A DNA stretch of 64,000 nucleotides, from positions 192,001 to 256,000 of the forward strand of contig CBDFLQ010000007.1 of NCBI GenBank assembly GCA_965249275.1, read 5' to 3'. The notes beneath the pieces are model-generated. The model saw nothing but the letters and a program-made list of their open reading frames with translations. It ran no database searches and was not told where the DNA came from. This document shows positions 43,345-59,355 of the stretch, piece by piece (within the stretch, counting starts at the first letter, position 1; each line of letters begins with the position of its first letter). Made by a program: the position numbers and the translations under genes. This stretch comes from Dehalococcoidia bacterium (GTDB taxonomy: Bacteria > Chloroflexota > Dehalococcoidia > Plut-88900).

Positions 43345-43363
43345 ACGGCGCAGACACGAGGGA

Positions 43364-43612: not shown

Positions 43613-43820
43613 GACTCCCCTCAACCCCCCGTCATCACGTGTCCCCGCTATGAATCTGAGGGACAGCGTCCTCTCCGTCATTCCGGCCGCCGAGAGTCGG
43701 TCGAAGATGCGCCGAGGCGTGAATCCATCCTTGGGGAGAGGCCGCTCATCCTGAGCACCGTCGAAGGGTCGAGCGGGGGGCGGTCCCGCACTGCCAATCC
43801 GTCGTGCCCGTCCCCCAAAA

Positions 43821-43864
43821 GTGACACGAACCCCTTGACTGTATGCGTACATGTGTACTATTAT
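43821..43864 (+). promoter_or_regulatory. Promoter of structured element copy 1 (TTGACT-18-TATTAT, GTAC-N4-GTAC box)
   Basis: Same spacing conserved in copies 2 and 3. Confidence 0.6.
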
Positions 43865-44495
43865 CCCCCTCGACTAGCTCGTCACACACCTAAACCCAAG
43901 GAGGAACCAAAAACCCAGGGGAAGCCCACCCGATCCACCCGAGGACTCAACGCCTCAGCCCATCCCAACGGCCCATACACGGGGCCCGCGGCTCAAGCGA
44001 AAGTCGCCATCTCCTCATCCCACGGGTCCCGTGCACCCTTCCCTGATCCCCAGGCGATGGAAGGTCCACAGACTATGCTCGGCAGGCCCCGTCCAACGAC
44101 GCACCTGCCGATTCAACGCTCCACATCATCGGATGCGTTTGTCCCGGCCCATTGCGCGCCGGTTTCCCGGGTAGGTCAACCGACCCCCGGTTTAGCAAGG
44201 CCCTCGTGCCTTGTTTGTCCCGCCGTCCCTGCCATCCGTCTACCCGGCGGATGCACCGGGACGCCGGTTATGAAAGTCCGCCTCAGGCGGCATCTTCCCC
44301 GTCAGCGGTCCGGTCAAGTGCCGCTGCCGGTGGGATCGGCCCCACACAACCCTGACCACAGCCGACAACGTGTGGGGATAATCCAGACCGGCGCCGACGG
44401 CTCGGCAGCAACCTCCGGCCTGGTTTCTAGTTACCGGGCCTTCCATCGCAGACCCTCCCAAACAAAACCGAAACCAACACCCCAAAACCCAATCG
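43821..44495 (+). ncRNA. Putative large structured ncRNA, copy 1 (coordinates include promoter)
   Basis: Homologous to 55112-55766 and 58573-59263; long-range helix 44054-44067/44436-44449; no conserved reading frame. Confidence 0.65.
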
Positions 44496-44673
44496 AATTT
44501 GCTGCAAGTGGAACACCCGCCTATGGAGGGCAGAACGTCCGCCTGGGGAGGTCCGCCTCAGGAGGACTAAAGAAAAACCCGGTGTGTCACTAATCTATCG
44601 AACGAGTACACCATATTGACCCCACTCCCCCCACCCCTTACCATTCCCACGCCGACCCACCAGGAGCACACCC

Positions 44674-46203
44674 TTGCCATCCACCGACTATGACGTAATC
44701 ATCATCGGCGCGGGCCACAACGGGCTCACCGCCGCCGCATATCTCGCCAAAGCCGGCCTCCGAGTCCTATCCCTCGAACGCCGCAGCGTCCTCGGCGGCG
44801 CAACCCTCACCGACGAGATATTTCCCGGCTACCGCCTTCCCCGCTATTCCTATGCCGCCCTCCTTCTAGAAGGCAAAGTTGTGCAGGACCTAGACCTCGA
44901 ATCCCACGGCCTCAAGGTCCTCCCCGTCGACCCCGAACGCATCCACCCCTTCCCCGACGGTCGAGCCGTACGAGTCTGGAACGACGACGCCCAGGTCGCC
45001 GAGGAAATCGCCCGCATCTCGCCCCCTGATGCCGACGCCTACCTCAAATGGGTCGACTTCTGGGTGAGGGCCGCCCACATCATTCACCCTTATATGCTTA
45101 CCTCCCCTCCCACCCTCGCCGAGGTCATGGCCTCCGTCCAGGGCACCGACGACGAGGCAGTCCTCGAACGTATCCTCTTCGGCTCCGCCTACGACATGCT
45201 CGACCAGTTCTTCGAGTCGGAGCAGGTCAAGGCGCTCTTCGCCTGGTCCTTCAACGACGCCCCCCTCTTCTTCGCTCGCCTGGAGACCTCCCGCTTCGGC
45301 GACCCCCGATACCAGGGCATCCTCCAGGGTGGCATGGGCAGCCTTCCCCGTTCCATCGAAGGAGCCGCCCGCTCCTACGGCGCTCAGTTCGAGACCAGCG
45401 CCGAGGTCCGACGTGTCCTCATTGAAAACTGCTCGGCCATCGGCGTAGAGCTTACCGACGGTCGTCAGATCAGGGCCGGGACGGTAGTCTCCAACCTCGA
45501 CCCCAAGCGCTCCCTCCTGGACATTGTCGACGAGGGACACCTCCCCTCCGACTTCCGGGCCCGCATCCGCTCCCTAAAGAACATGCGCGCCTCCATGAAG
45601 CTCCACGCCTCCCTCTCCGAGCCCCCTGACCTGAGCCACTACTTTGGCGGGGACTGGGACCTCGGATACCTGGGCCGTGTCAGGATGTGCCCTAGCCTCG
45701 ACCATGTGCGCGCCGGTCGCGCCGACGCCGATGCCGGCCGTCTCCCCCAGCACCCCTCCATGATCATGCAAATCCCTTCCGTCTACGACCCCTCAATGGC
45801 CCCCGAGGGCAAACACTGCATGTCGGTATGGGTCGAGACTGCCGCCTTCGAGCTAGCCGACGGCTCCTGGGACGACGCCCGGGAACAGGTCGCTGACATC
45901 ATCGTCGACGCCCTTTCCGTCTACGCCCCCAACATCAAGGACGCCATCATCGATAGGCAGGTCGTTACGCCCTTGGACCTCGTCCGCGAGGTCGGCCTCA
46001 CCAACGGCGACATCCTCCACTTGGATATGACCCCTCAACAGTTCTTCGCCTCTCGGCCCCTCCGAGGCTGGAACAGCTATCGCACCCCAATCGGAAACTA
46101 CTATCTCTGCGGAGCCGGGACCCATCCGGGCGGCTACGTGTCCGGGGCCCCGGGCCACAACGCCGCCCATGCCATCCTCCGAGACATGGAGCTCGCTTCT
46201 TGA
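44674..46203 (+). CDS. Phytoene dehydrogenase-like FAD oxidoreductase
   Basis: IGAGHNGL.AAAYLAKAG, GGMG, YLCGAGTHPGG.VSGAPGHNAA. Confidence 0.9.
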   Translation: MPSTDYDVIIIGAGHNGLTAAAYLAKAGLRVLSLERRSVLGGATLTDEIFPGYRLPRYSYAALLLEGKVVQDLDLESHGLKVLPVDPERIHPFPDGRAVRVWNDDAQVAEEIARISPPDADAYLKWVDFWVRAAHIIHPYMLTSPPTLAEVMASVQGTDDEAVLERILFGSAYDMLDQFFESEQVKALFAWSFNDAPLFFARLETSRFGDPRYQGILQGGMGSLPRSIEGAARSYGAQFETSAEVRRVLIENCSAIGVELTDGRQIRAGTVVSNLDPKRSLLDIVDEGHLPSDFRARIRSLKNMRASMKLHASLSEPPDLSHYFGGDWDLGYLGRVRMCPSLDHVRAGRADADAGRLPQHPSMIMQIPSVYDPSMAPEGKHCMSVWVETAAFELADGSWDDAREQVADIIVDALSVYAPNIKDAIIDRQVVTPLDLVREVGLTNGDILHLDMTPQQFFASRPLRGWNSYRTPIGNYYLCGAGTHPGGYVSGAPGHNAAHAILRDMELAS

Positions 46204-47021
46204 CCACCTCCCATCACCCCACCGACCCCGAACTTTTTACGTCCGAGTCCATCCGTAACAACCTCAACACTTCCTTCATGGGCCGCGACCTTCTTTTCTA
46301 CGACACCCTTCCCACCACCATGGATGTCGCCGATATGAAGGCCATGGCAGGCGCTTCCGAGGGCACTGTCATCCTCGCCGACGACCAGACGGCAGGCCGG
46401 GGCCGCTTCGACCGACAGTGGGTCGTCGAGAAAGGTGCTGCCATTGCAGTCTCGATCATCCTTCGTCCTCCACCCCCCGTCTCCGCCCGTCTCCATATAG
46501 TCTGCTCTCTCGCCGTGGCCCGTGCCGCCGAGACCGCCGCCGGACTCAAACCCGCCATCAAATGGCCCAACGATGTCCTTATCGACGGCAAAAAGACCTC
46601 CGGAATACTCCTCACTTCCAACCGGGACCGAGATGGCAAGTTATATGTGAACGCGGGTATCGGCATCAACGTCAACCAGACCGCCGAGTCCCTCTCCGAA
46701 ATCACCCCGCCCGCCACCAGCCTCCGCGTGCAGGCGGGCCAACCCGTCTCCCGTTTAGAAGTCTTCTGCGCCCTGCTCCATCACTTGGAAAAGCTCTATC
46801 TCGAAGCCGTCTCAGGCAGCGATCTGCTCGACCTGTGGCGCTCCTATCTCATCACCCTCGGCCAGCACGTTCGTGTACAATGGCGCAGAGAGGACATGCT
46901 CGGTTTCGTGGAGGAAGGCCGTGCCGAAGACATCGACGAATTCGGCCGCCTCCTCCTCCGCACCGACGAAGGCGAGCTGAAAACCCTGGTATCCGGAGAA
47001 GTTACGCTGCACGGCCAATAG
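46200..47021 (+). CDS. birA: Biotin-protein ligase (no N-terminal HTH)
   Basis: QTAGRGR, KWPNDVLI.GKK.SGIL, GIGINV. Confidence 0.92.
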   Translation: MTTSHHPTDPELFTSESIRNNLNTSFMGRDLLFYDTLPTTMDVADMKAMAGASEGTVILADDQTAGRGRFDRQWVVEKGAAIAVSIILRPPPPVSARLHIVCSLAVARAAETAAGLKPAIKWPNDVLIDGKKTSGILLTSNRDRDGKLYVNAGIGINVNQTAESLSEITPPATSLRVQAGQPVSRLEVFCALLHHLEKLYLEAVSGSDLLDLWRSYLITLGQHVRVQWRREDMLGFVEEGRAEDIDEFGRLLLRTDEGELKTLVSGEVTLHGQ

Positions 47022-47057
47022 CGGCCACAACCCAATCCCTTCTACACTGGTCACAAT

Positions 47058-47870
47058 ATGACGGACGCATACGATTTTTCAGGACGCGTGGCCCTTGTAA
47101 CAGGCGGAGGCTCAGGCCTCGGTAGAGAGGTCGCCGTGGCCCTTGCCAAGCTTGGCGCCGACGTCGTTGCCGCAGGCCGAAGGCCGGGCCCCATCCAGGA
47201 GACTGTCGACACCATCCTGGCCAATGGCGGCAGGGCCATCGCCGTCTCCACCGACGTGACCGACTCCCAAAAGGTCGACTCCCTTGTCGAGCGCACCGTC
47301 TCCGAGTTCGGCCGCATCGACATCCTCGTCAACAACGCCGGCATCTCCGGCGCAGATGACCCTGAGAAACCAGTATGGGAAATCACCGACGAGGTATGGC
47401 ACCGTGGCATTGACGGCGAGCTAACCGGCTCCTTCTTCTGTGCCCGTGCCGCGGGCAAGCACATGGTCGGTCAGCGCTACGGCAAGATCGTCAACGTCTC
47501 CTCCGGATTTGGTTATGGCACCCAGCGCGGCCAAGTCATGTACGGCGTCGCCAAGGCGGGCGTCATTCAGCTGACCCGAGTCCTCGCCATGCAGTGGGCC
47601 CGAGACAACGTCAACGTCAACTGCATCGTTCCCGGCCTCTTCTACACCCTCCCCGAGGAGATGGAGCGAACCATAGAAGAGCGCGGGCACCGCTTCATCC
47701 CCGTCGGTTTCGTAGCCACGGCCAAAGACCTCGTCGACCTCGTCCTCCTGCTCTGCTCCGACGCCTCGTCCTACATGACCGGCGAGAACATCATGGTCGA
47801 TGGCGCTGCTCTCATCGGCGCTTACGCTCCCTGGGGCTACCAGCCCCTCACCCCGACCCCGGAGGCCTGA
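47058..47870 (+). CDS. SDR oxidoreductase
   Basis: TGGGSGLG, NNAG, YGVAK. Confidence 0.92.
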   Translation: MTDAYDFSGRVALVTGGGSGLGREVAVALAKLGADVVAAGRRPGPIQETVDTILANGGRAIAVSTDVTDSQKVDSLVERTVSEFGRIDILVNNAGISGADDPEKPVWEITDEVWHRGIDGELTGSFFCARAAGKHMVGQRYGKIVNVSSGFGYGTQRGQVMYGVAKAGVIQLTRVLAMQWARDNVNVNCIVPGLFYTLPEEMERTIEERGHRFIPVGFVATAKDLVDLVLLLCSDASSYMTGENIMVDGAALIGAYAPWGYQPLTPTPEA

Positions 47871-47871
47871 C

Positions 47872-48585
47872 ATGTCCCCCGCTCCTTTCAATCTTAAGGG
47901 CAGAAACGCAGTCCTTGTGACACGGGGTGGCATCAATGCCCCCGCCCTCGCTGCCGCACTCACAGATGCAGGTGCAAGCCTCGCAGTGGTCCACCCCGAG
48001 TCGACCACCCCACCCCCCACCCCCAAGGCTGTGTCCTGGCCCGGTGACACGGATGGCCTCGAAGATGCGGTTTCCAGTGCCATTTTCGACCTCGGCGGCA
48101 TAGACATTCTTGTAAACGACCTCGCTGCCGACTTCGCCAAGCCCCTCGCCGATATGACCTATGCAGAATGGCGCACCACCATAGACCTGAACCTGGACTC
48201 GGTGTTCCTCTCCTGCAAAGCAGCCGCGAGCCACATGCTGGCACAGCAGAGGGGACGCATAGTAAACATCGCCTCGGGTCTCGGGGCACGCGTGGTGGTC
48301 AACCAGAGCGCCTTTTCGGCGGCCGAGGCCGGGGTCATCCACCTCACACGCGCCCTGGGCCTCGAGTGGGCCCGAGACAACGTTCGTGTCAATGCCATCG
48401 TCGGCGGCTGGATCGTCGACTCCGATGACGCACTCCCCGACAAGATTCGCCGCTACGTTCCCATGCAGCGCTGGGGCAGGCCCGAGGACCTCGGCGGCAC
48501 CCTCATCTACCTCGCCTCCGACTCCTGCGCCTTCACCACCGGCGAACCCGTCTTCATAGACGGCGGCATCATGATCCGAACGTAG
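47872..48585 (+). CDS. SDR-fold protein lacking catalytic motifs
   Basis: SDR C-terminal motifs (IVNIAS, EWARDNVRVNAI, FTTGE..IDGG) present, but TRGGINAP replaces TGxxxGxG and FSAAE replaces YxxxK. Confidence 0.82.
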   Translation: MSPAPFNLKGRNAVLVTRGGINAPALAAALTDAGASLAVVHPESTTPPPTPKAVSWPGDTDGLEDAVSSAIFDLGGIDILVNDLAADFAKPLADMTYAEWRTTIDLNLDSVFLSCKAAASHMLAQQRGRIVNIASGLGARVVVNQSAFSAAEAGVIHLTRALGLEWARDNVRVNAIVGGWIVDSDDALPDKIRRYVPMQRWGRPEDLGGTLIYLASDSCAFTTGEPVFIDGGIMIRT

Positions 48586-48819
48586 GATATGCCTGCCACT
48601 TGTGAAGTTCTGTTCCACTCGACTCTCTTTTACCTGTCATTCCGAGGCTCCGCGAGGAATCTAAAGCATTATTTCGCAGCCCAGACTTAAATACCCTCAC
48701 AGCTTCGTCTACCAGCGCCGGCTTCCCCCTCCCCGTAGGGGCGACCGGCCAGTCGCCTTGACTCCCCACCCACCCTGGCCCTCTGGAAAACAAACCCAAT
48801 AGTACAAGGAGAACCCGAC

Positions 48820-49236
48820 ATGGCCACCAAGAAAGCCCTCCCTCTATCCGACGCCCCAGACCGCAGCCACGTTTTCAACTGGGGCCTCAAGGTTTCCGGC
48901 TTCAGCGAGCTCCTCCTCCTCACCGGCCAGATCGACGCCGACCGCGATGGCAACGTCCGACACCCAGGCGACGCCGTAGCACAGACCGAGGCCGTCTTCG
49001 ACTCCCTGGTCGGAATGCTCGAAGCTGAGGGCTGGTCCGTCGACGACGTCATCCGCGTCGAACCGACGATTACCGTGGACTCGGACTCGCCTGAGAATCG
49101 TGAAGGCATATACGCCGTCTGGGCAAACTGCTTCAAAGACGTGGCCGTGAAGCCCGCCGCAGGCACCCTGAGACTCATCAGCGCCCTCGCCCGACCCGGA
49201 TTCTTCGTAGAATTCGAATTCCTCTGCGCCCGTTAG
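48820..49236 (+). CDS. RidA/YjgF family protein
   Basis: LTGQ, GDAVAQTE.VF, LARPGFFVEFE. Confidence 0.85.
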   Translation: MATKKALPLSDAPDRSHVFNWGLKVSGFSELLLLTGQIDADRDGNVRHPGDAVAQTEAVFDSLVGMLEAEGWSVDDVIRVEPTITVDSDSPENREGIYAVWANCFKDVAVKPAAGTLRLISALARPGFFVEFEFLCAR

Positions 49237-49275
49237 GGGGCACCCCTTCGTCTGGACATAAATCGCCCTGGACAT

Positions 49276-49320
49276 AAGGCATCGGCGGGAGCAATGTCTG
49301 CTCCCGCCGATGCCTTTTTT
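49276..49320 (+). terminator. Rho-independent terminator
   Basis: AAGGCATCGGCGGGAGCA-ATGTC-TGCTCCCGCCGATGCCTT followed by a T run, after the RidA gene. Confidence 0.8.
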
Positions 49321-49786
49321 CATTTCCGCGCAATTCTCCCCACTCCCACAACTCCCTTCTCCTTCGACGGTTCTTTGTGGATCCGTATTGCACCCTTTCC
49401 TGCGTCATTCCGGGCCCCGAGCCGGAATCCATCATCTCCCACCCTCTCTGTCCCTCCACTGTACGGGCATCCACGAGGGTTGCTCTAGGGGCGGGGGAAT
49501 CCGTTCACCCTAGGCCTAAGTCGAAGGACAAGTGGATTCCTGGCGCGCTTCAGTCCCCTCTCCCTCAGTGGGTCGCAGATGCTGCAAGTGCGTCTTTGGC
49601 GCACGCCGAGGCGTGAGAGGGCTGGGGTGACTCCCTTCTACCTCTCCAGCTACAAAACACCCTCTATTGCAACCCATACCCCATGTTGCTATCCCCTACC
49701 CATTGCCACCTGTATCCTGCTATGCAATCCCCCGCCCCTTGCCACCCGACTTCCTACGTGCTACCTTCCCGCCGTAAGGAGGTCCC

Positions 49787-50119
49787 ATGCCCCAATCCCT
49801 CACCTGCTGGGAGACCGCCCGACGCCTGAACGTCAAACCTCTATGGGTCCACAGGCTCATCGACAGGGGAGACCTGAAGGTCGTTGGAGACGGCGTCACC
49901 GAGGAGTCCGTCAAGAAGCTCTTGCGCCGCCGCGAGGCACGGAAACGCCCCGCCGGCTACGTCAGCATCAAGCGTGCCTCAGTATTTCTCGGAGTCTCAC
50001 GGCAGCGGGTCCAGCAGCTCTGCGACTCGGGCGCCCTCCGCTCCAAGTCCGTAGAAGGCCGAGTCTGGATCGATGGAGAGAGCGTATTCAAGCGCGCGGA
50101 GGCCCAGCCCCGCCAATAG
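49787..50119 (+). CDS. Small protein with two excisionase/MerR-like HTH repeats
   Basis: AAGGAGG SD; LTCWETARRLNV...V.RLI..GDL and VSIKRASVFLGVSRQRVQQLC.SGAL. Confidence 0.72.
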   Translation: MPQSLTCWETARRLNVKPLWVHRLIDRGDLKVVGDGVTEESVKKLLRRREARKRPAGYVSIKRASVFLGVSRQRVQQLCDSGALRSKSVEGRVWIDGESVFKRAEAQPRQ

Positions 50120-50236
50120 ATACCTATCATTGGAGCAATCCAACTCCCGCCCTCATTTACTGGCCTTTGGCCTTAATGTAGAATTCATCATGCTTAAACT
50201 CATGATTAGACTGTTGAATAACGCTCCGCCGAGACC

Positions 50237-51256
50237 ATGCTCCGCATAGCCCTGCCCAGCAACGCCGACTGGCTGGACCCTACCCTTGATTTCCTGAACT
50301 CATGCGGCCTCCCCGTTAAGAGGGTCACTGCCCGGCGTTATACGGGCCGCATGCCCGCTGTTCCCGGCGCTGTCGTACTTTTTCAGCGCTCCGCCGACAT
50401 CCCTCGCCAGGTGGAAGCTGGCGCCGCCGAGATCGGCCTTGCGGGCCTCGACCAGTTCCTCGAAGCTCACGCGGATGATGGGCCCGGGTTGCTCCTCGTC
50501 AAAAGCCTGCGCTTCCGTGGCGCAGATCTGGTAATCGCCGTCCCCGACTCCTGGGATGACGTCATCTCCGCCGAGGATCTGGCCAACCGCTCCAGGCAGT
50601 ACGAAAACGAGGGGAAATCCCTACGCGTAGCCACGAAGTACCCGCAGCTCACCAGGAGATATCTGGAAGACCAGGGCGCGGTCAACTTCTCTATCATCGA
50701 TGCCGGTGGCACCCTCGAAGCCGCTCCCGCTATGGGCTATGCCGACTTCATCGTCGACATCACTTCCACCGGCAACACCCTCCGGGAGAACCAGCTCAAA
50801 ACAATATCCGGTGGGACGGTTGTGAAGTCCCAGGCCTGCCTATTTGCCAACAAGGACCTCCTGAGCCGGGATCCCGACGCCCTCGCCGGTGTCCGCATCC
50901 TCCTTGAGCTCATCGAAGCCCGACTCCGTGCCTCCGAGTACTACAGCATCATTGCCAACATTCAGGGGGAATCCCCCGCCCAGATTGCAGGCCACATCCA
51001 ATCCCACCCCGAGATCGCAGGCATCGAGGGGCCTACCGTCTCCCAGGTCTTCAGCAAGGACGGCGAGACAGGCTGGTACGCCGTCACCATGGTCGTCGAG
51101 CGCGACAAGGTAATTACCGCCGTCGACCATATCCGAGGCATAGGTGGGAACGGCATCATCGTTTTCCCCACTACCTACGTGTTCGAAGCCAAGTGCACAA
51201 CCTACGACAACCTGCTCGAACAGCTGGGGCGCGCCCCGGTGGAAACGTCGGTTTAG
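50237..51256 (+). CDS. hisG: ATP phosphoribosyltransferase (long form)
   Basis: RIALP, RSADIP, VATKYP, GTLEAAP, DITSTGNTLREN, GPTVS. Confidence 0.94.
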   Translation: MLRIALPSNADWLDPTLDFLNSCGLPVKRVTARRYTGRMPAVPGAVVLFQRSADIPRQVEAGAAEIGLAGLDQFLEAHADDGPGLLLVKSLRFRGADLVIAVPDSWDDVISAEDLANRSRQYENEGKSLRVATKYPQLTRRYLEDQGAVNFSIIDAGGTLEAAPAMGYADFIVDITSTGNTLRENQLKTISGGTVVKSQACLFANKDLLSRDPDALAGVRILLELIEARLRASEYYSIIANIQGESPAQIAGHIQSHPEIAGIEGPTVSQVFSKDGETGWYAVTMVVERDKVITAVDHIRGIGGNGIIVFPTTYVFEAKCTTYDNLLEQLGRAPVETSV

Positions 51257-51260
51257 TGGG

Positions 51261-52007
51261 ATGCCCAACTCCTCGCTCCATATCTCCTTCGCCGACGACG
51301 CTGCCAGGGCCCTCGGCCACCCCCTCCTGACCGACTACTCAGGCAGCTACCTTCTCGGCTCCACGGCCCCCGACGTCCGGAACCTCGCCGGCTGGGACCG
51401 ATACCGCACCCACTTCTTCGACCTTGCCAACGACCAGCCCGGCAAAGGCATTCAGGGCCTCTTCGATACCTATCCTGAGCTCTCTGACGCCGCAAAACTC
51501 GGCAACGAGACCCGTGCCTTCGTCCTCGGCTATATGTGCCACCTGGTCACCGACGAGCACTGGATCGCCGGCGTCTACCGCCCCTATTTCGGCAAAAAGA
51601 CTTCCGCCGACCCGCTCACCAACGTCCTCGACCGAGTCCTCCAGTTCGAATTGGACAAGCGTGAGCGCAATGGCATCCGGGACCTTGATGGCGTACTGGA
51701 GGCCCTTAAGGACGCCGACACCGGTGTCAACGTCTCCTTCATTGACGCCGACCTCCTGCGCCGCTGGAGGGACGTGATGACGGAGCGCACCTCCATGGAT
51801 CTCGGCTGGGACCACCTGAGGCGATTTGTACGAAAGGCCCTCCCCCAGCATCTGAAAGATGACGAGGGTACTATGACCTCCGTCATTGCCCAGGGCCCCG
51901 AGCTTCTCTCCCGAGCCAAGGAGCAGGCCCCCGACCACGTCATCGCTTCCTTCAGAGCCAAGGCCATCGACAAGTTCGTTGACATCGCAGGGGAATACCT
52001 CTCTTGA
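51261..52007 (+). CDS. Zn-dependent phospholipase C/S1-P1-like fold protein
   Basis: MP...H, LGSTAPD, THF, GY.CHL.TD..W. Confidence 0.75.
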   Translation: MPNSSLHISFADDAARALGHPLLTDYSGSYLLGSTAPDVRNLAGWDRYRTHFFDLANDQPGKGIQGLFDTYPELSDAAKLGNETRAFVLGYMCHLVTDEHWIAGVYRPYFGKKTSADPLTNVLDRVLQFELDKRERNGIRDLDGVLEALKDADTGVNVSFIDADLLRRWRDVMTERTSMDLGWDHLRRFVRKALPQHLKDDEGTMTSVIAQGPELLSRAKEQAPDHVIASFRAKAIDKFVDIAGEYLS

Positions 52008-53350
52008 GAGTCATCACCGACCTAACCGAGGCCCGTGACTTCCTCAGTCGGCTCCACGGCGGCCCCGACGCCCCTTTGAGTCCCAAAGTCGCCGCCGGCA
52101 TTGAACGCGTATTCGGCGAACCTCTATCTCTTCCCGAAGCCGTCACCGGCATCCTCGATGACGTCCGTACCAAAGGTGACGCCGCTCTCTTCGACTACCT
52201 CCGCCGCATCGACAACATTTCCCCCGACCACCTGGAAGTCCCCCAAAGCGCCCTTGATGCCACCCTGGATAAAATCCCCCCCAATGTCGCCGACTCCCTG
52301 AGATTTGCCGCCTGCCGCATCCAGGATTACCAGACCGAGTTAGCCCGGCACACCATCCGGGATTTCACAAGCAACGGCCTCGGCCAGAGAGTCACCGCCC
52401 TGGACAGGGTCGGCCTCTACGTTCCCGGCGGCACCGCCGTTTATCCTTCCACCGTGCTAATGACTGCCATTCCCGCCCGAGTCGCGGGCGTCCGGGAGAT
52501 CATTCTGGTAACTCCCCCCCGCCCCAATGGCTCAATCGCGCCCGTCGTCCTTGCGGCCGCGGCAATCGCCCGAGTCGATAGAGTCTTCGCCATCGGCGGC
52601 GCACAGGCCATAGCCGCCCTCGCTTACGGCACCGAGTCCATCCCCGCCGTCGACAAGATTTTTGGCCCCGGCAACGTCTTCGTACAGACCGCCAAGCGCA
52701 TGGTTTTCGGCACCGTAGGCGTCGACACCATCCAGGGCCCCACCGAGGCCGTCACCGTCGCCGATGACCACATTTCACCCTCCTGGTGCGCCGCCGACAT
52801 CCTCGCCCAGGCCGAGCACGACCCAGATTCCGTATCCATTCTCATTACCGATTCCCCGTCCCTCGCCGAGCGGGTCGAATCGGAGCTCACCGACCTACGT
52901 CAGCGTTCCCAGCGTCTCGATATCCTCACCCAGTCCATGGACGCCAATGGCGCTATTATCGTCACCGAATCCATTGAGCAGGCCATTGATCTATCCAACC
53001 TCTACGCCCCGGAACACCTCTGCCTCATGGTCCGCAACGCCGACCGCTATGTTGACCTAGTTAAGAACGCCGGGGCCCTGTTCCTGGGAGACCACTCTCC
53101 CCACGTTCTCGGGGACTACGTCGCAGGCCCGAGCCACGCCCTCCCCACGGCAGGCGCCGCCCGTTACAGCTCTGCCCTCGGCGTTAATGACTTTCTGAAA
53201 TCCATGTCTATAATCTCCCTGTCGGAAGAAGAGGCGGGCCCCCTTCTGGCGCACGGCATAGCGATTGCCCGACAGGAGGGCTTCGAGTCCCACGCCCGCT
53301 CCCTGGAAGTCCGCACCGCCCAGCATTCCGTTAGCAGCGCCGGAGACTGA
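52004..53350 (+). CDS. hisD: Histidinol dehydrogenase
   Basis: GLYVPGG, GGAQAIAALAYGT, AQAEH, APEHL, GDYVAGPSH. Confidence 0.96.
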   Translation: MRVITDLTEARDFLSRLHGGPDAPLSPKVAAGIERVFGEPLSLPEAVTGILDDVRTKGDAALFDYLRRIDNISPDHLEVPQSALDATLDKIPPNVADSLRFAACRIQDYQTELARHTIRDFTSNGLGQRVTALDRVGLYVPGGTAVYPSTVLMTAIPARVAGVREIILVTPPRPNGSIAPVVLAAAAIARVDRVFAIGGAQAIAALAYGTESIPAVDKIFGPGNVFVQTAKRMVFGTVGVDTIQGPTEAVTVADDHISPSWCAADILAQAEHDPDSVSILITDSPSLAERVESELTDLRQRSQRLDILTQSMDANGAIIVTESIEQAIDLSNLYAPEHLCLMVRNADRYVDLVKNAGALFLGDHSPHVLGDYVAGPSHALPTAGAARYSSALGVNDFLKSMSIISLSEEEAGPLLAHGIAIARQEGFESHARSLEVRTAQHSVSSAGD

Positions 53351-53352
53351 AC

Positions 53353-54480
53353 ATGGATACGGAAAAGTCTCGACCCTCAATCCGAGACCTCATGCGCCCC
53401 GACCTCCGTCACCTCGCGGGCTACACCCCCGTCGTCCCTGTCGAGCGCCTGGTCGCCGAGACCGCAGCCTCATCTGGGGTGGCGCTGACCCCGGTCAAGC
53501 TGGACGCCAACGAAAACCCCTACGGCCCCTCTCCCCGCGTCCTCCAGGCCATATCTGAAAGCGAGGCCCTCCACACCTACCCCGACGCTGAGCAGCGCAC
53601 CCTCCGCGCCGCCCTCGCCGAGTACGCCGGGCTCGCCACCGAGAACATAATTGTCGGCAACGGCTCTGACGAAGTCCTCGACATGATTATCCGTCTCCTC
53701 CTGGAACCGGGTGATCGAGTGCTCAGCTGTATCCCCACATTCGGCATGTACAAGTTCCTCACCGACGTTGCCGGCGGCCAACTCATTGAGCTCCAACGCA
53801 CACCTGATTACGGGATTGACCTCGACGCCATAAAAGCCGCCACCGACGAACGTACCAAGCTCATCTTCCTCGCCTCCCCCAACAACCCCACCGGCAACAG
53901 TGTCCCGCGGGATAAGGTGATAGCCCTCCTGGAAATGGGCCTTTATGTTGTCATCGACGAGGCCTACTTCGAGTTTGCAGGCCACACCGTCGCCGACCTG
54001 GTCAAAGACTACGAAAACCTGATGGTAGTTAGGACATTCAGCAAGTGGGCGGGTCTCGCCGGCGTTCGAATCGGCTACGCCATCGTCTCCCCCGAGGTCT
54101 GTGCCTGCCTCAACCAGATCAAGCAGCCCTACAACATCAGCGTATTTGCCCAGATAGCCGCTTTGGAGTCTCTACGGGACCGGGATTACCTGATGCGCAA
54201 CGTCCAGGCCCTTGTGAAGGAAAGAGCCCGGCTCTTCGATTTCCTGCAGGGTCTCGACTACCTCTCTCCCGTCCCCTCTGAGGGCAACTACATCCTCTGC
54301 AACGTCATCCGTGGGAACGGCGAGCAGGTCTTCAACCTGCTGAAACAGCGTAATATATTCGTCCGGTATTATGATAGACCTAACTTGAAAAACTGCTTCC
54401 GAATCAGCGTCGGCAAGCCGGACGAAACCGACCGCCTCGTCGACGCCCTCGCAGAGATTGGCTTGGAATTGAATGGCTGA
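53353..54480 (+). CDS. hisC: Histidinol-phosphate aminotransferase
   Basis: [37 protein letters not shown]. Confidence 0.95.
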
Positions 54481-55072
54481 CAGACACGCCCTGCTCGAAC
54501 GAAAGACCGGTGAGACCGACATATCCATTGAGGTCGAGATCGACGGCACGGGCCAGTACACCGTCGACACCGGAGTCCCGATGCTCGACCACATGCTTTC
54601 CCAGCTAGCCCGTCACGGCGCTTTCGACCTCAATATCAGTGCCCGGTCCTCCACAGACCCCGACGGCCACCACACAGTCGAGGACGTTGCCATTCTCCTT
54701 GGAAGGGCCTTTGGCCAGGCTCTCGGGGACCGCACGGGCATCGTCAGGATGTCCCATGCCCTTGTACCCCTCGACGAGGCCCTCGCCCTTGTTGCTCTGG
54801 ACCTCGGCGGCCGAGGCTACGCCCAGGTCGACCTATCCTTCACCCAGCCCGTAGTAGGCGGCCTCACCTCCGACATGGCTCGGCACTTCCTGGAGTCCTT
54901 CGCCATCGAAGGCCGCTTCAACATCCATGCCAAAATTGAAGCTGGCACGAACGACCACCACAAAATCGAGGCCCTATTCAAAGCCCTCGCCAAATCCATG
55001 GACGCCGCCTCCCGCATAGACTCCCGCACCGCCTCCCAAGTCCCCAGCACCAAAGGCGTCATAGAAACCTAG
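54473..55072 (+). CDS. hisB: Imidazoleglycerol-phosphate dehydratase
   Basis: [31 protein letters not shown]. Confidence 0.96.
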
Positions 55073-55111
55073 AACGTCCGGGGGCCGCTTAGACCTTCTC
55101 TGGGAGGAGGG

Positions 55112-55766
55112 TATTCAGTTGTGGAGGGAAACTCGGTTTTGCTTGTTTGGATTGTTGGGAGGGGGAAGGCGATGGAAGGTCCGGGACTCGAGGGCAGGGG
55201 CGGGAGGCCAGCCTGCGATTACCCCACCTGTCTCTGCTGTGGCGGACGAGAGAGGCGGGGTGTCTCGTCCACAAGAGGGCACTCGACCATTCGGAGGGAT
55301 GGGAGTGCGACTCAACTTCCGCCGCTGGGTGGGAATCTCCGAGGGAACGACGGTGGAGTCGGAGCCTGGGGCACGAAGGCCCCTGGCCAGCCCTACATTA
55401 GCGGGCTCGTATATTCGCGTGCTATGCGCATAGCGTTGACTCAAATGCTTCGGGTGAGGGAGCGTTGAATCGGCTGGCGTTGTAAGGGTGGATGCCCTTA
55501 GAGTCTATGGACCTACCATCGCCTGATGGTCAGGGAAGGGATAGCCGGGGCCTTTAGTATGAGGAGATGGCGACTTTCGCTTGAGCCGGAGGGCGTCGCG
55601 CGGCGCACCTGCGGGATGGGCTAGGACGTTGAGTCCTCTGCTATGTGGGCCGGGGCTGGGGTTCCCCCTGGGTATTGGCGCCTCCTTTGGGATTAGGGTG
55701 AGTGATTGGCCTATCGAGGGTGAATATAGCACAAGTGTTTTGCTTGAGTCAAGGGGTTCGCGTCAC
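55112..55766 (-). ncRNA. Putative large structured ncRNA, copy 2 (coordinates include promoter)
   Basis: Reverse complement aligns block by block with copies 1 and 3; helix 55509-55522/55169-55182; TTGACT-18-TATATT promoter. Confidence 0.65.
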
Positions 55767-56006
55767 TCGCTTCAGCGAGTCTTCGACCCCATCCCCTTTC
55801 ATGCGGGAGGGGACGCCACCCCATTCCGCTCTTGAGACCCTTCGACTCGGCTCACGCCACGGCGCATCTTCGACAGGGCGAGCGGAATACCCTGCCCCCA
55901 GGAATGGAAAGGGCGTATTTCGTGAGCCGGTTCAGGGGAGGGGGGGTGCGACCACGAGAGTCGTTCCTAGGGGGGAGGGATCACCCTCACCCTAGCCCTC
56001 TCCCAT

Positions 56007-57212
56007 TGTATAGACCGGGGACATAGGTAACAGTTGTTCGGAGACATGGGTTACACCATAAGGCATGATAAATCTGATTCAGGAGGGTTTTCATGCCATG
56101 GAAGGTTGCAAGTGCCATGTCTCAACGCGAAGAGTTCGTCGCCCTGGCGCAGTCCGAGGATGTGAATATGAGCGAGCTGTGTCTGCGCAGTGGGATCAGC
56201 CGCAAGACCGGCTACAAGTGGCTGAGACGATGCCTTGAAGGCGGAGAGCAGAGTCTGGATGATCTCCCGAAGCGTCCCCGTCACTCCCCGAACCGCACGG
56301 GCGCCGAGATGGAGCAGCTCGTCGTAGACCTTCGTAGGGAGCACCCCACCAAGGGAGGACACGTACTGGCCAGGATGCTCAAGGATAGTGGTCACAACGG
56401 CGTGCCGTCCAAGAGCACGGTCACGGCCATCCTCAGGCGACATCGACTTATAGAGCCGGCCGACAGCCTCAAGCACAAGCCGTACAGGCGCTTCGAGCAC
56501 CAACGGCCCAACGACCTTTGGCAAATGGACTTCAAGGGGCATATCCCAGTAGACAGTGGTGGACGGTGTCACCCACTGACGGTACTGGACGACCATTCGA
56601 GGTTCTCCCTGGGCGTGAGGGCTTGTGCAGACGAGAAGACTCAGACCGTCCATGACCATCTCACGTCCATCTTCCGCCGCTACGGCATGCCCAACACGAT
56701 ACTGGTAGACAATGGCTCCCCCTGGGGCAGCGACTTCTACCACCCCTTCACCCCGCTCACCGTCTGGCTGGTGCACCTGGGAGTCAGGGTGGTCCATAGC
56801 AGGCCATACCATCCCCAGACTCTCGGCAAGCTTGAACGCTTCCACAGGTCCCTCAAGACGGAACTGCTCCAGGGAAGTAAATACACCGACCTGTCCCACT
56901 GCCAGAGCAGCTTTGACAGGTGGAGAGACTTCTACAACCTCCAGCGGCCTCACCACGCCCTGGACCTCGATACCCCTGCCAGCAGATACACCATCAGCCC
57001 TCGGCCTTTCCCGGAGACCCTTCCGGCCGTCGAGTACGATGCCGATGACCAGGTACGCTCCGTCGATGTCAACGGCCGAATATCCTTCCTGGGCAGATCA
57101 CTTCCCATCGGTAAAGCCTTCAGAAACAGGCGGGTCGCGCTGAGGCCCACGGCCAACGATGGCACATGGAAGGTCTTTTTCTCCGTACAGCCCATCGCTA
57201 CCATAGATCTAG
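56007..57212 (+). mobile_element. IS481-family element, right end truncated by IS5
   Basis: Left end TGTATAGACCGGGGACATAGGTAACA; no matching right end found beyond the IS5. Confidence 0.82.
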
Positions 57213-57223
57213 GAAACCTCTGA
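56093..57223 (+). CDS. IS481-family DDE transposase
   Basis: MPWK, GISRKTGYKW, WQMDFKG, LDDHSR, DNGSPW, HPQTLGKLERFHRSLK. Confidence 0.92.
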   Translation: MPWKVASAMSQREEFVALAQSEDVNMSELCLRSGISRKTGYKWLRRCLEGGEQSLDDLPKRPRHSPNRTGAEMEQLVVDLRREHPTKGGHVLARMLKDSGHNGVPSKSTVTAILRRHRLIEPADSLKHKPYRRFEHQRPNDLWQMDFKGHIPVDSGGRCHPLTVLDDHSRFSLGVRACADEKTQTVHDHLTSIFRRYGMPNTILVDNGSPWGSDFYHPFTPLTVWLVHLGVRVVHSRPYHPQTLGKLERFHRSLKTELLQGSKYTDLSHCQSSFDRWRDFYNLQRPHHALDLDTPASRYTISPRPFPETLPAVEYDADDQVRSVDVNGRISFLGRSLPIGKAFRNRRVALRPTANDGTWKVFFSVQPIATIDLGNL

Positions 57224-58408
57224 ACAAGTCTAAGGGCATAGGTAATAGGTAAGATAGGGAGAGTAAGGCCAAAGCTGAGGTGAGATTTGATGGAGCAGCC
57301 GACATTTGCAGACTTGGAATACGAGGGCAAGAAGCGAAAGACCCGCCGGGAGATATTTCTGGAGCGGATGGAGGACCTGGTTCCATGGGGAAAGTTAGAG
57401 GAGCGAATCCGGCCCTACTATTCCAGGGCGGGCCGTGGACGGAGGCCCTACGAGTTGTCGGTGATGCTGCGGATACACTGCGTGCAGCTGTTCTACAACC
57501 TGAGCGATCCGGGCATGGAGGACATGCTCTACGAGGTGGAGTCGGTGAGGCGGTTCGCAGGTCTGAGGCTGTCCGGCCCCTTGCCTGACGAGACTACGAT
57601 ACTGAACTTCCGCCATCTGCTGGAAGAGCAGGAGTTGGGTCGGGGGCTGTTCGAGGAGATCAACCGTCATCTGGAGTCTCGGGGACTGAGGCTCAGGGAG
57701 GGTACGATTGTGGATGCGAGCATCATCGAGGCGCCGGCGTCTACGAAGAACCGTGCTGGAGAGCGAGACCCCGATATGCACCAAGTGAAGAAGGGGAAGG
57801 AGTGGCACTTCGGTATGAAAGTGCACATTGGTGCAGACGCTGACACGGGGGTGGTGCACAGTATGAGTACGACAGCTGCGAACGTGCATGACGTGACGGA
57901 GGCGCACCGGCTGCTGCATGGAGGGGAGAGGCGAGTGTGGGGAGATGCGGGATATCAGGGAGTGGAGAAGCGGGCGGAGAATCGGGATATGGATGTGGAG
58001 TGGCGGGTGGCGATGAGACCTGGACGGCGTCGGAAACTGAGGGCGGGGAGCTGCGAGGCCTTAGCGGAGAAGAGCAAATCATCCATCAGGGCTAAGGTGG
58101 AGCATCCGTTCCTGTACGTGAAACGGCACTTCGGCTACGCCAAGGTCCGCTACAGGGGCTTGTACAAGAACACGCAACGGGTGGCGATGCTGCTGGGGCT
58201 GGCCAACTTGGTAAGGGCCGAGCGCCACTTAGCGGTGTGACGGAGGAGCAGTGTGGTCAAATCCGGGTCGATGGTGACTGGATGCCCTGACAGGCCAGAA
58301 CATAGGATGCAAATAAGCCACCGAGACGCAACATTACGACCCAACCTCTCCCCAAAACTCCATGCAAGACAACCTAAGCTGGTTTACAGTGAGTTGTTCA
58401 GAGCTTCC
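57213..58408 (+). mobile_element. IS5-family element (1196 bp)
   Basis: TIRs GAAACCTCTGAACAAGTC / GAGTTGTTCAGAGCTTCC; CTAG on both sides. Confidence 0.9.
57290..58240 (+). CDS. IS5-family transposase
   Basis: RKTRREIFL..M, PDETTILNFRHLLE, VDASII, WHFGMK.HIG, GDAGYQG, RAKVEHPF. Confidence 0.95.
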   Translation: MEQPTFADLEYEGKKRKTRREIFLERMEDLVPWGKLEERIRPYYSRAGRGRRPYELSVMLRIHCVQLFYNLSDPGMEDMLYEVESVRRFAGLRLSGPLPDETTILNFRHLLEEQELGRGLFEEINRHLESRGLRLREGTIVDASIIEAPASTKNRAGERDPDMHQVKKGKEWHFGMKVHIGADADTGVVHSMSTTAANVHDVTEAHRLLHGGERRVWGDAGYQGVEKRAENRDMDVEWRVAMRPGRRRKLRAGSCEALAEKSKSSIRAKVEHPFLYVKRHFGYAKVRYRGLYKNTQRVAMLLGLANLVRAERHLAV

Positions 58409-58464
58409 CTAGGACTTGTCCTCTCACGCCCTTCCTAGTCTTCCTTCCCCTCCCCCCTGGTAAC

Positions 58465-58505
58465 GACATATCAGCAATGTTGCAAGGCAACATTGCTGAT
58501 ATGTC
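58465..58505. repeat. Perfect 19-bp inverted repeat
   Basis: GACATATCAGCAATGTTGC-AAG-GCAACATTGCTGATATGTC. Confidence 0.85.
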
Positions 58506-58572
58506 AATAAAACAGGGCGGGTGGGCGGGACTCAATATATCCCTGAGGGTGGTGGGGGGGCCTCTCCCAAAT

Positions 58573-59263
58573 GTGACACGAACCCCTTGACCTAATTGGA
58601 ACGTGTGTACTATTATTCCTCTCGACTAGCTCGTCACCCATTCCTAACGTAAAGGAGGAACCACAACACAGGGGGAATCCCAGCCCCGGCCCACACGAGG
58701 ACTCAACGTCCAAGCCCATCCCGCCGAGCGGCGTTAGCCGCTCCTAGGCTCAAGCGAAAGCCGCCATCTTCTCATACCATAGGCCCCGGCTTATCCTTCC
58801 CCCACCATCCACGCGATGGAAGGTCCGTAGACTATAAGCGGCAAGCCCTGTCCAAGGGCCCCTGCCGATACAACGCTCCCCTCATCAGGAGCGTATACCT
58901 CGCCCTCGCAGGCGAATACGCTGACCCCGCCAATGGCCGGGCTTAGATACAGGGCCTTTGAGCCCATAACCGACTCCCCCGCCGACGCCTTCGGAGAGGC
59001 ACGCGCACCCCTCGGCGGCTCCGAGTCCCGCTCCCATCCCTCTGCATGGTCGAGCACTTCTGGTGGTCGGGACGCCCCACACCGAGAATCCCTCGGGTCC
59101 CCTCCACATCCTCTCAGAAGCTAGGGGCTGTCCTGTGCAGGCAGTCGACGCCCACAGGCACCGGCACAGGCCTAACCGCCTCCCTGCCCAACACTCTCGG
59201 ACCTTCCATCGCCACCCTCCCCACACCAAACAAAAATCCAGAGTCCCAACTCCCAACTGAATA
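58573..59263 (+). ncRNA. Putative large structured ncRNA, copy 3 (coordinates include promoter)
   Basis: TTGACC-18-TATTAT promoter with GAAC-N4-GTAC; perfect helix 58813-58826/59199-59212; homologous to copies 1 and 2. Confidence 0.65.
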
Positions 59264-59355
59264 ACCGACGGCCTCCCGCTCCCCTGTCATTCCGAGGCTC
59301 CGCGAGGAATCTAGGACTTGCCCACCCACATCCTTCATAGCCTTCCCCCAACCCC

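Follow-up and report, generated by a model that had tools for sequence, protein, structure and literature searches.

A genus-limited family of promoter-bearing repeats with a predicted structured 5' RNA domain and a terL-like gene relic in a Dehalococcoidia bacterium

Background

Related kinds of element are known among promoter-bearing repeats, repeats built around gene fragments and large structured RNAs. The Correia elements of Neisseria are promoter-bearing miniature inverted-repeat transposable elements (MITEs), short and non-autonomous, which are found in tens to hundreds of copies and whose transcripts fold into long helices. The Pack-MITEs of plants are non-autonomous repeats with a captured fragment of a host gene inside. 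OLE, GOLLD, ROOL, HEARO and raiA are large ornate non-coding RNAs (ncRNAs) of several hundred nucleotides, multi-domain, with conserved junctions and variable hairpins; we know of none that occurs as tens of dispersed copies per genome. The element described here was found in a 64-kb stretch of DNA from a Dehalococcoidia bacterium (GCA_965249275.1, contig CBDFLQ010000007.1, positions 192,001 to 256,000; "the window"), in which three copies of a structured, promoter-bearing unit lie between positions 43821 and 59263. A first-pass annotation, made from the letters of the window, had taken them for three paralogs of a large ncRNA or of an RNA-based mobile element.

Set against the familiar description of the Correia elements, the units are alike in being interspersed, non-autonomous, present or absent between relatives and provided with a promoter. 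They differ in being 4-6 times longer, in having their long helix inside the unit instead of formed from its ends, in their weak terminal inverted repeats and lack of a cognate transposase that could be found, and in carrying a conserved multi-helix 5' RNA domain and a variable cassette derived from a gene. Unlike Pack-MITEs, the family is bacterial, and its fragment is always the same part of the same gene, diverged into about 12 classes and enclosed in a conserved RNA fold. In contrast to the large ornate ncRNAs, it is gene-derived, its copies behave as DNA insertions, and no covariance model of those RNAs matches it. The combination of a conserved multi-helix 5' RNA domain, an exchangeable cassette from one part of a terL-like gene and tens of copies within one genus is undescribed as far as was found; no description of such elements turned up in full-text searches of the literature.

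Results and Discussion

Copy number and taxonomic range

The three stretches are members of an interspersed family limited to one genus of uncultured Dehalococcoidia, with at least 54 copies in the window's own genome (G000; 2.9 Mb in 7 contigs, 87% complete) and tens in each of eight sister species. In this genome copy 1 as a BLAST query had 42 matches, and all three copies together pointed to 74 places. With the first 250 nt as an iterated nhmmer profile, 72 matches were obtained, 54 of them strong (127-239 bits) and 18 weak (19-34 bits); the weak ones mostly share the first 50-86 nt, i.e. the promoter part. The count of three paralogs therefore has to be replaced by one of 54 strong copies and 18 loci with the promoter part alone. 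With some 650 bp to each of about 54 copies, the units are estimated to make up over 1% of the 2.9-Mb genome.

A covariance model of the 5' core (CM R1), built from 40 diverse copies, likewise had 54 matches in G000, at least 23-71 in each of the eight other species of the genus (lower bounds, 150 candidates having been scored per genome) and none in three other genera of the same family. By BLAST, matches were found in 9 of 41 genomes, all within the genus; the three sister genera gave none, and neither did 29 other families of the class, each represented by a single genome. The restriction to the genus is thus a statement about 41 genomes by BLAST and 12 by CM. An exact-pattern scan of species-representative genomes revealed at least 79 loci, which among the matches listed were all in six Dehalococcoidia bacterium chromosomes assembled from metagenomes. 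In distant congeners the 5' core (query about 73-250) is the part that BLAST still detects, most matches missing the promoter part and the 3' domain.

Anatomy of the unit

All three window copies were present at the coordinates and on the strands first annotated, and could be aligned end to end over 829 columns with a mean column identity of 72%; every conserved block listed for them was there in copies 1-3. The exception was the 3' boundary of copy 1, which lies at about 44611 instead of 44495, the tail being followed by a further hairpin module and the terminal motif TCGAACGAGTACA. The features of the three copies are as follows.

43822..43864 (+): copy 1, upstream block GTGACACGAACCCC and promoter, with -35 TTGACT at 43835-43840, an 18-nt spacer and -10 TATTAT at 43859-43864
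43871..44053 (+): copy 1, 5' domain, from conservation in 100 copies and the RNAalifold helices P1/P2/P4; CM R1 score 171.5 bits; beside the parts below it holds a variable hairpin and GGCTCAAGC..GCC
43898-43904 (+): copy 1, AAGGAGG, Shine-Dalgarno (SD)-like and nearly invariant, within the 5' domain
43916-43924 / 44037-44046 (+): copy 1, helix P1, CAGGGGAAG with CCCTTCCCTG (RNAalifold)
43941-43945 / 44011-44015 (+): copy 1, helix P2, GAGGA with TCCTC (RNAalifold)
44054..44449 (+): copy 1, 3' domain between the closing-helix arms, class 0, a decayed and frameshifted terL-like relic
44054-44067 / 44436-44449 (+): copy 1, closing-helix arms GCGATGGAAGGTCC / GGGCCTTCCATCGC, 13.5 of 14 paired
44450..44611 (+): copy 1, A/C-rich tail ending CAATCGAAT (to 44498), then the 3' extension
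44598-44610 (+): copy 1, terminal TCGAACGAGTACA (R3 motif match at C7:236598), preceded in the 3' extension by repeated small hairpins (..CCGCCTATGGAGGG.., TCCGCCTCAGGAGGA) and GTGTGTCAC
55112..55766 (-): copy 2, class 6, with promoter (-35 55752-55747, -10 55728-55723) and 5' domain
55522-55509 / 55182-55169 (-): copy 2, arms GCGATGGTAGGTCC / GGACCTTCCATCGC; tail end AACTGAATA at 55120-55112
58573..59263 (+): copy 3, class 11, with promoter (-35 58587-58592, -10 58611-58616) and 5' domain
58813-58826 / 59199-59212 (+): copy 3, arms GCGATGGAAGGTCC / GGACCTTCCATCGC, 14 of 14 paired; tail end AACTGAATA at 59255-59263
58818..59252 (+): copy 3, terL relic corresponding to TerL residues 232-378, interrupted by 2 in-frame stops and shifted in frame at least twice

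Each copy has its own putative promoter, as had been claimed: a single sigma-70-like site with 10/12 consensus matches and an 18-nt spacer, shuffled sequences giving 0.2-0.3 sites. The sequences are TTGACT-18-TATTAT (copy 1), TTGACT-18-TATATT (copy 2) and TTGACC-18-TATTAT (copy 3). The position of the promoter is invariant across 100 distinct copies aligned from the own and related genomes. Conservation sets in sharply at GTGACACGAACCCC (GTGAC), 14 nt 5' of the -35 box, and in about 20 copies a further motif, GATCCCGTTCACATAGAG, marks the 5' terminus 20 nt before the GTGACA block. The transcript of copy 1 is predicted, from the position of the -10 box, to start at about 43871. A short leader with three alternative palindromic versions separates the promoter from AAGGAGG, after which come a 5' core of about 165 nt, the 5' arm of the closing helix, the variable domain and the 3' arm. 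Near- or fully invariant blocks in the 100 copies are AAGGAGG, GAGGACTCAACG, AGCCCATCC, GGCWCAAGC, CGCCATCTCCTC and GGCGATGG.

The variable domain measures 200-520 nt. The 62 domains of the own genome fall into about 12 sequence classes with 13, 11, 10, 6, 5, 5, 4, 2, 2, 2, 1 and 1 members. It is followed by an A/C-rich tail of about 50 nt ending CCCCACAAYYGAAKA and, in about half of the copies, by a 3' module of 1-3 small hairpins, GTGTGTCAC and the terminal CCGAACGAGTRCA; the tail and 3' extension of copy 1 are common to this half, and copies 2 and 3 stop at the tail. In its general build the unit is about 650-900 bp long, with about 180 nt for the 5' RNA domain and 350-500 nt for the variable domain. 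A GC-GAAA-GY tetraloop described for the 5' domain was not borne out, the loop reading GAAAG, AAACG, GACCG, AACAG or AAAAG, so that there is no conserved GNRA loop; the same loop accepts 22-nt hairpin insertions in some copies. No intrinsic terminators were found at the three copies. Rho-dependent termination at the A/C-rich tail was considered and dropped, Rho_RNA_bind not being found in the own genome. No tRNA or tmRNA was found in the 64-kb window.

The sense strand of the unit is the locally C-rich strand in 32 of the 43 copies with a clear skew, long open reading frames (ORFs) being split 207 vs 172. GC skew in the window flips at about 43.5 kb (42000-45000), being about +0.2 to the left of this point and about -0.2 to its right, independently of gene strand; the cumulative skew peaks at this flip, with copy 1 exactly at the switch. 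Such a peak is usually read as a replication terminus or a rearrangement boundary. In two related genomes (G001 and G007) the two flanks of the switch point are inverted and separated by about 10 kb.

A second promoter-like site (TTGACC-17-TACCAT, 9/12) directly follows copy 1 at 44616-44644. Since it ends 30 nt before the amine-oxidase-like gene at 44674, this gene probably has its own promoter and does not need read-through. At another locus (L023, G000 C6:81013-81800) the unit is directly followed by a TTGAC-N17-TAATAT site and a tRNA gene.

Origin of the variable domain from a terminase-like gene

The promoter-only nhmmer matches led to three loci where the same promoter block precedes real genes.

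G000 C7:110807-112617 (L136:508-2318): two-gene cassette behind the same promoter block (C7:110680)
G000 C5:3-1983 and G000 C6:411297-411650: the further loci of this kind

The first gene encodes a protein of 117-146 aa across the loci (137 aa in L136) for which Pfam gave nothing credible. The second, in L136 and on C5, is an intact 462-aa TerL-like ORF. It matches three PHROG families of terminase large subunits (residues 328-435 with E 2.6e-6 and 3.8e-6; residues 6-165 with E 2.5e-4); there was no Pfam match at E <0.1, and a PDB sequence search gave a chance match only.

When the 462-aa protein was searched against the own genome by tblastn, 20 places were found: 2 near-full-length genes, 10 copies of what is here called the MSR type (promoter-only copies named by their first residues) and 8 other element loci. 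The MSR-type matches are 38-52% identical over residues of about 191-370. Six of the 8 other loci carry the standard 5' module, copy 3 and two members of copy 2's class among them. Copy 3 matches residues 232-364 with E 9.8e-5 in the genome and 4.7e-8 in the window alone, and two further TerL pieces in other frames, one of them 61% identical over 28 aa, indicate frameshifts. Members of class 6 other than copy 2 match with E 1.4e-4 and 5.3e-4. Copy 2 itself holds only short colinear pieces, APGSDSTVV and LPSLRMVE (E 4.4 each), and copy 1 a single weak piece at its 5' arm, GDGRSTDYARQA (E 2.6); the main link of copy 1 to this descent is that it aligns with copies 2 and 3 at the nucleotide level.

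The 5' arm corresponds to codons G-K-G-R-F at about residue 230 and the 3' arm to G-P-S-I-V at about residue 363. Read from these homologies, the variable 3' domain is shown to be a relic of codons of about 230-365 of a terL-like gene, part of the nuclease domain. What had looked like a free-standing RNA invention is a decayed coding fragment. The window copies hold only residues of about 230-365, with stops and frameshifts, and miss both the ATPase half and the end of the nuclease domain; a working terminase large subunit is ruled out by the frame breaks and the missing domains. By sequence, the family is graded from intact terS-like/terL-like cassettes through 5'-truncated open-frame copies to non-coding copies, of which the window contains the last kind only. 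The likeness to phage terL genes (PHROG 5909, 5713 and 9; PF17289 on some homologs) lies in this homologous arm-to-arm domain. It differs in that the fragment is fused to a different 5' domain, and in the own genome the parent gene is accompanied by a small gene upstream and lies apart from phage structural genes.

Full-length, stop-free TerL-like genes were identified in 11 of 12 genomes of the family, 2-5 per genome within the genus and one per sister genus (54-58% identity); that of G010, in a sister genus, is interrupted by a single TGA. Database homologs of the protein at E <=1e-30 number at least 3980. Among the best 120, every named one is a "hypothetical protein", mostly from Dehalococcoidia or Chloroflexi metagenome-assembled genomes, and 3 of the 120 carry PF17289, the RNase-H-like domain of terminases. 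PHROG scans of 10 neighbouring ORFs of at least 150 aa within 10 kb of the intact cassette in the own genome recognised no phage structural genes. A TerL-like gene in such surroundings suggests a domesticated role.

Behaviour as DNA

Comparison between genomes shows in part that the units move or are lost as DNA. Three foreign loci (L051, L042 and L044) stand opposite empty sites in G000, two of them precise and that of L044 looser. In L051 a unit of 875 bp lies between ..CAAAAT and TGAGCC.. with AAT (3 nt) repeated, and in L042 a unit of 764 bp has TTTCGT (6 nt) on both sides. Under stricter flank rules, 17 foreign elements were evaluable, with the corresponding position in G000 occupied in 10, empty in 4 and holding other sequence in 3; a further 56 had no usable flanks.

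The variable domain is also exchanged. At the orthologous locus of copy 1 in two sister species (G002 and G005) the flanks are 91-93% identical and the 5' module is kept; from the distal closing helix through the tail the sequence is of a different class, and similarity returns in the 3' module. A co-binned contig (C4), about 93% identical to C7:586-592k, has a cassette swap with its ends exactly at both arms. C4 (9.1 kb) and another contig, C3 (10.3 kb), are about 93% identical to stretches of C7 and C6, respectively, and look like pieces of a close relative binned with the own genome and not like true duplications. An invertible cassette was rejected, as there were no minus-strand matches among the 62 variable domains.

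The size and copy number are those of a MITE, with units of 650-900 bp, 54 copies in 2.9 Mb and no conserved ORF in the main classes. Because the terminal inverted repeats are weak, the duplications unequal and an autonomous partner was not found, "MITE-like" is used here as a label for behaviour.

The inserted unit contains its own promoter and about 20 nt upstream of it. Searches for reverse transcriptase (RT; PF00078), TnpB (PF07282), IS110 (PF01548) and Y1 (PF01797) gave 0 matches in the 87%-complete own genome, and were positive in 3-8 of 14 control genomes. Since the inserted units include the promoter and RT was not found, the events are taken to be at the level of DNA. The first-pass proposal of a multicopy ncRNA or an RNA-based, non-autonomous mobile element can be kept as to multicopy, non-coding and non-autonomous, given the precise presence and absence between species; "RNA-based" is not supported, with the promoter and upstream bases being carried along and RT, TnpB, IS110 and Y1/HUH not found. 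The same results make it very improbable that the units are a retroelement or the guide-RNA gene of a transposon nuclease (omega RNA, bridge RNA, retron or group II intron), which a large structured multicopy RNA with a conserved scaffold and a variable part might otherwise bring to mind. No Rfam family of introns, retrons or omega RNAs matches, and the neighbouring IS481-family copies target a separate palindrome.

An IS481-family element was rejected as a partner: it is often just upstream of copies, but it inserts into a repetitive extragenic palindromic (REP)-like palindrome, GTCATTCC|.., that is separate from the unit, and its ends differ. This 1056-bp element (e.g. G000 C7:521098-522153) has at least 11 copies in the genome, and its target, GTCATTCC|GAGGCTCCGCGAGGAATC, often stands just upstream of units. 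Two other insertion sequences, with an IS481-family rve transposase and a DDE_Tnp_1 transposase, lie between copies 2 and 3 at 55977-57250 and 57287-58240. At 58460-58515 some 55 nt form a near-perfect palindrome, GACATATCAGCAATGTTGC..GCAACATTGCTGATATGTC, with AATAAAACAGGG after it; it recurs upstream of some units, also upstream of G000 C7:453337. Short REP-like repeats flank the units at 43700-43790, 55830-55900 and 59280-59320 (GTCGAAGATGCGCCG.GGCGTGA, GTCGAAGGGTC and CCTGTCATTCCGAGGCTCCGCGAGGAATC). REP-like pieces and a 146-nt unit, the latter also at 1075-1223 of the window, are nested inside some variable domains.

Coding potential

The three window copies are non-coding. Their arm-to-arm frame is broken, as it also is in classes 0-3 (40 copies), 6-8 (8 copies), 10 and 11; copy 2 has 1-2 stops in the TerL frame and an arm distance of 1 modulo 3, and the 3' domain of copy 1 has stops in all frames. 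In the copy-1 class, 24 distinct copies from the own and related genomes that are 77-96% identical, substitution diversity by codon position was 0.107/0.121/0.113, without a 3-base periodicity. That indels break any frame was confirmed, with 14 of 62 distinct gap events in this class being multiples of 3 and stops in every frame in most copies. Coding in the main classes was rejected on the broken frames, gap lengths and flat periodicity.

It is conceivable that the window copies are translated from AAGGAGG via a non-canonical start into Pro/Thr/His-rich proteins, but we regard this as highly unlikely. AAGGAGG is nearly invariant in the 100 copies, copy 1 has an open frame of 252 aa (43835-44593), and open frames are kept in the related class-4, class-5 and MSR-type copies. 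In the window copies, however, no ATG, GTG or TTG occurs 5-10 nt after the SD-like sequence. The frame of copy 1 is stop-free in only 2 of the 24 members of its class, where 48 of the 62 gaps are not multiples of 3 and codon periodicity is absent. The 5' domain contains 22-nt hairpin insertions and length-variable hairpins, and long open frames are expected by chance in C-rich sequence.

Other parts of the family are different. The frame from arm to arm is open and intact in class 4 (5/5) and class 5 (5/5), and the MSR-type copies constitute a further group.

G000 C7:724391, C6:57505, C6:128785, C6:946494, C5:735580 and 7 more (one in L139): the 12 MSR-type copies, 5'-truncated terL-like, with their own SD and ATG

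All 12 have AAGGAG-N4-ATG, with the ATG frame free of stops in 12/12 and the other frames having 1-6 stops. Of 18 gap events 14 are multiples of 3; codon-phase diversity is flat (0.216, 0.223 and 0.210), without a third-position excess. From these features the MSR-type copies may be translated, fast-evolving proteins. As for the conserved ORF across homologs that the first-pass annotation had named as evidence against an RNA, two sister subfamilies do have a stop-free frame and in-frame indels; the third-position excess is absent and the window copies are frame-broken.

These open frames, together with the cassettes, bear on a trans-acting role, in which the family would be tied to a terminase-like system, its RNAs or truncated proteins being decoys, cofactors or markers for the small-protein/TerL-like pair, for instance through binding to the small subunit, or interfering with phage packaging. 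Elements and intact cassettes stand behind the same promoter block, the tail end of the element resembles by eye the 5' untranslated region of the small-protein gene, and the TerL-like gene is kept across the family, in the own genome without phage structural genes within 10 kb. The 12 MSR-type copies, with SD and ATG, 0 stops, in-frame indels and flat codon-phase diversity, are compatible with diversifying selection, and the variable-domain classes are many and diverged. No experimental or contextual link between RNA and protein was found, however. The RNAs are sense to terL, which makes pairing with terL mRNA impossible, and show no complementarity to other genome regions beyond nested repeats. 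The gene can do without the elements, since it occurs in sister genera in which they were not found. On balance such a role is improbable. Antisense targets were sought as well and rejected, the variable domains matching only leftover copies and nested small repeats in the masked genome.

Exaptation of a piece of a domesticated terL-like gene into multicopy structured RNA genes of a new class, in which the conserved 5' domain and the exchangeable cassette would work with the family-wide small-protein/TerL-like pair, is a doubtful reading to which we give little weight. Under it the units might mark the chromosome for packaging or recognition, their RNAs might be cofactors of a DNA-transfer machine, or they might, along with the truncated open-frame paralogs, be diversifying decoys against phage terminases.

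RNA structure

The RNA had been called unrecognised, and Rfam indeed gave 0 matches at gathering thresholds in the 64-kb window. In permissive mode copy 1 had only a 12-bit chance match (E 7.7). In E-value mode 19 loci of classes 0-4, 6, 7 and 11 gave only a tRNA and 34-bit mir-2450 matches (gathering score 59) on a flanking palindrome; the mir-2450 matches are spurious, their link to the 55-nt-type palindrome having been made by eye only. No covariance model of Rfam 15 for RNase P, tmRNA, SRP, 6S, group I/II introns, OLE, GOLLD, ROOL, HEARO, retrons or omega RNAs matched, and these families were rejected.

Strong folding, with some helices kept through sequence change, was upheld by free energies far below those of shuffled sequences and by complementary type switches. 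In six copies the sense strand gave minimum free energy (MFE) z-scores between -5.1 and -7.8 and the antisense strand between -2.1 and -5.2, and the 3' domain of copy 1 gave z = -6.0. The 14-bp closing helix was found as first described: all 14 positions pair in copy 3, one G.U pair lowers the score of copy 1 to 13.5, and one mismatch that of copy 2 to 13. It exists in two fully complementary versions, ..GAAGGUCC/GGACCUUC.. and ..GAAGACGC/GCGUCUUC.., three compensating pairs apart, with the cores GGUCC/GGACC and GACGC/GCGUC; G.U pairs, which on the opposite strand would be A.C, are frequent. In 115 elements its distal 6 bp had a mean of 4.8 paired vs 4.23+/-0.08 with permuted partners (maximum 4.50 in 500 permutations).

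A second long-range helix, P1b, is formed between the stretch after GGGAAG and the stretch after CUCCUC, and occurs in four types, the two sides of each being complementary: CAC-CC-GACCC/GGGUC-CC-GUG, AGCC-CC-GGCC/GGCC-CC-GGCU, CCGGAC/GUUCCGG and CCG-A-GACCCG/CGGGUC-C-CGU. Its mean duplex energy in 97 copies is -11.6 vs -8.2 kcal/mol with shuffled partners, and five type-mismatched (recombinant) copies pair poorly. RNAalifold of the 100 copies gave compensatory change in 3 of 17 pairs, one P1 pair being AU:51, GC:24 and GU:7; in the hairpin after UCCUCAU two pairs are CG:60/AU:21 and GC:65/CG:25. Between CCCAUCCCAA and GGCWCAAGC, inspection by eye shows a hairpin that is formed by at least 4 unrelated sequences. 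For class 0 the consensus contains 130 pairs with 98% of cells paired vs 30-46% with slid partners, 8 pairs with compensatory change vs 2-4, and 168 G.U vs 30 A.C.

These folds have to be weighed against simple decay, that is, dead terL-like pseudogene fragments scattered by recombination or duplication, with promoters, motifs and folds inherited or gene-converted and an RNA without a role. The descent from terL is clear, the window copies have stops and frameshifts, segments are exchanged among paralogs, and no covariation was counted in the conserved helices. The corresponding stretch of the intact gene is, moreover, already more stable than its surroundings (MFE -163 vs -114 to -127). Yet the derived copies fold better than this stretch: arm-to-arm z is -2.0 to -7.7 for the former, -2.2 for the latter and -0.2 to -2.0 for other windows of the gene. 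At the two arm sites the intact gene has by eye only a 6-bp complement, GGAAGG/CCTTCC, which has grown to 14 bp in the elements and has two compensating versions, and P1b complementarity is kept in four sequence types. Conservation is position-specific, with invariant blocks amid free positions and variable hairpins in 100 copies from at least 7 genomes, and it is the 5' core that remains detectable in distant congeners. Decay also fits poorly with unit-length insertions of already non-coding copies after the species split. Taking both sides together, we rate decay as unlikely, though a serious alternative.

Transcription and the AAGGAGG motif

Part of the stretch was contained in 20 of 24 listed sequencing runs, two of which are on record as RNA; contig matching covers four runs. 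The label "sponge metagenome" stands in the records of runs with a small share of the stretch, and no habitat is deduced from it here. Contigs of two metatranscriptome libraries cover copy 1 at 43985-44386, matching its variable domain; those of 132, 85 and 92 nt have 0, 0 and 2 mismatches, and a 253-nt contig of the second RNA run has 11. Copy 3 is partly covered (58923-59182) by one RNA-library contig and one contig from a run guessed to be RNA. For the two protein genes after copy 1 (44536-47071) no contig was found in the two RNA runs; parts of the window left uncovered by RNA-library contigs are not evidence of silence.

AAGGAGG lies about 30 nt from the predicted transcript start. In cry3A of Bacillus thuringiensis, the SD-like sequence STAB-SD is reported to be a 5' stabiliser of mRNA against RNase J through binding of the 30S subunit (PMC4113751). 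By analogy, AAGGAGG would most likely be a ribosome-binding 5' stabiliser of this type. The likeness consists in a perfect SD-like site near the 5' end without a translation start, and in an RNase J encoded in the own genome (571 bits). The difference is that the motif is here within a non-coding RNA of a Chloroflexota bacterium, where AAGGAGG may instead pair with a downstream CUUCC, as chosen by RNAalifold (alignment A4).

The most probable explanation

The explanation which we hold to be probable, if not assured, is that of a selfish, gene-derived, MITE-like repeat with a 5' domain kept by selection at the level of RNA. A fragment of the nuclease part of a terL-like gene behind the shared promoter block would have been truncated and would then have become a non-coding structured unit. 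Units would be gained and lost as DNA, and variable domains exchanged between paralogs by recombination at the conserved arms, for which the arms and the 5' module may provide the homology. The promoter would give a C-rich, highly structured RNA of about 600-750 nt, a step with some support, and selection would maintain the 5' rod (P1-P1b-P2) and junction.

Several observations count against this explanation. No compensatory pairs (0) were counted in the conserved core helices (P2, P4 and SD/CUUCC; alignment A4), shuffles giving the same as observed; there is no covariation to be seen there, these helices never varying. For P1b and the closing helix the covariation comes from anchor alignments in our own scripts, and the type switches are common to related copies and are not independent events. 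The consensus energy is lower for the antisense (-186) than for the sense strand (-141); energy alone is thus not decisive as to strand, and the assignment therefore rests on the promoter, the G.U pattern and the z-scores. The invariant motifs could in principle be kept by gene conversion instead of selection. The RNA contigs are assembled and indicate presence only, without strand, ends or level, and DNA carry-over is possible. The open frames in class-4 and MSR-type relatives may mean that part of the family acts as protein. The A/C-rich tail is without an explanation from terminators or Rho. As to mobility, the two clean duplications differ in length (6 vs 3 nt), the terminal inverted repeats are weak (GATCCCGTTCACATAGAG vs inverted CCGAACGAGTRCA agree at about 7/12 positions), and an autonomous partner sharing these ends was not found in the own genome, where about 20 copies carry each end and no motif pair is more than 890 bp apart.

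Conclusions

Since closed genomes now exist, this repeat family has become visible; such repeats break short-read assemblies of these symbionts. If the units are only decaying repeats, they are markers of strain and species history within the genus, of limited general interest. Also brought to notice is a terminase-like gene, widely conserved in Dehalococcoidia, to which the databases give no functional name where a source names it; in the own genome it stands alone with a small partner gene. If the reading at the level of RNA is true, a coding fragment would have turned into a structured, promoter-driven RNA and then been amplified, with all stages, intact, truncated but open, and non-coding, present in one genome.

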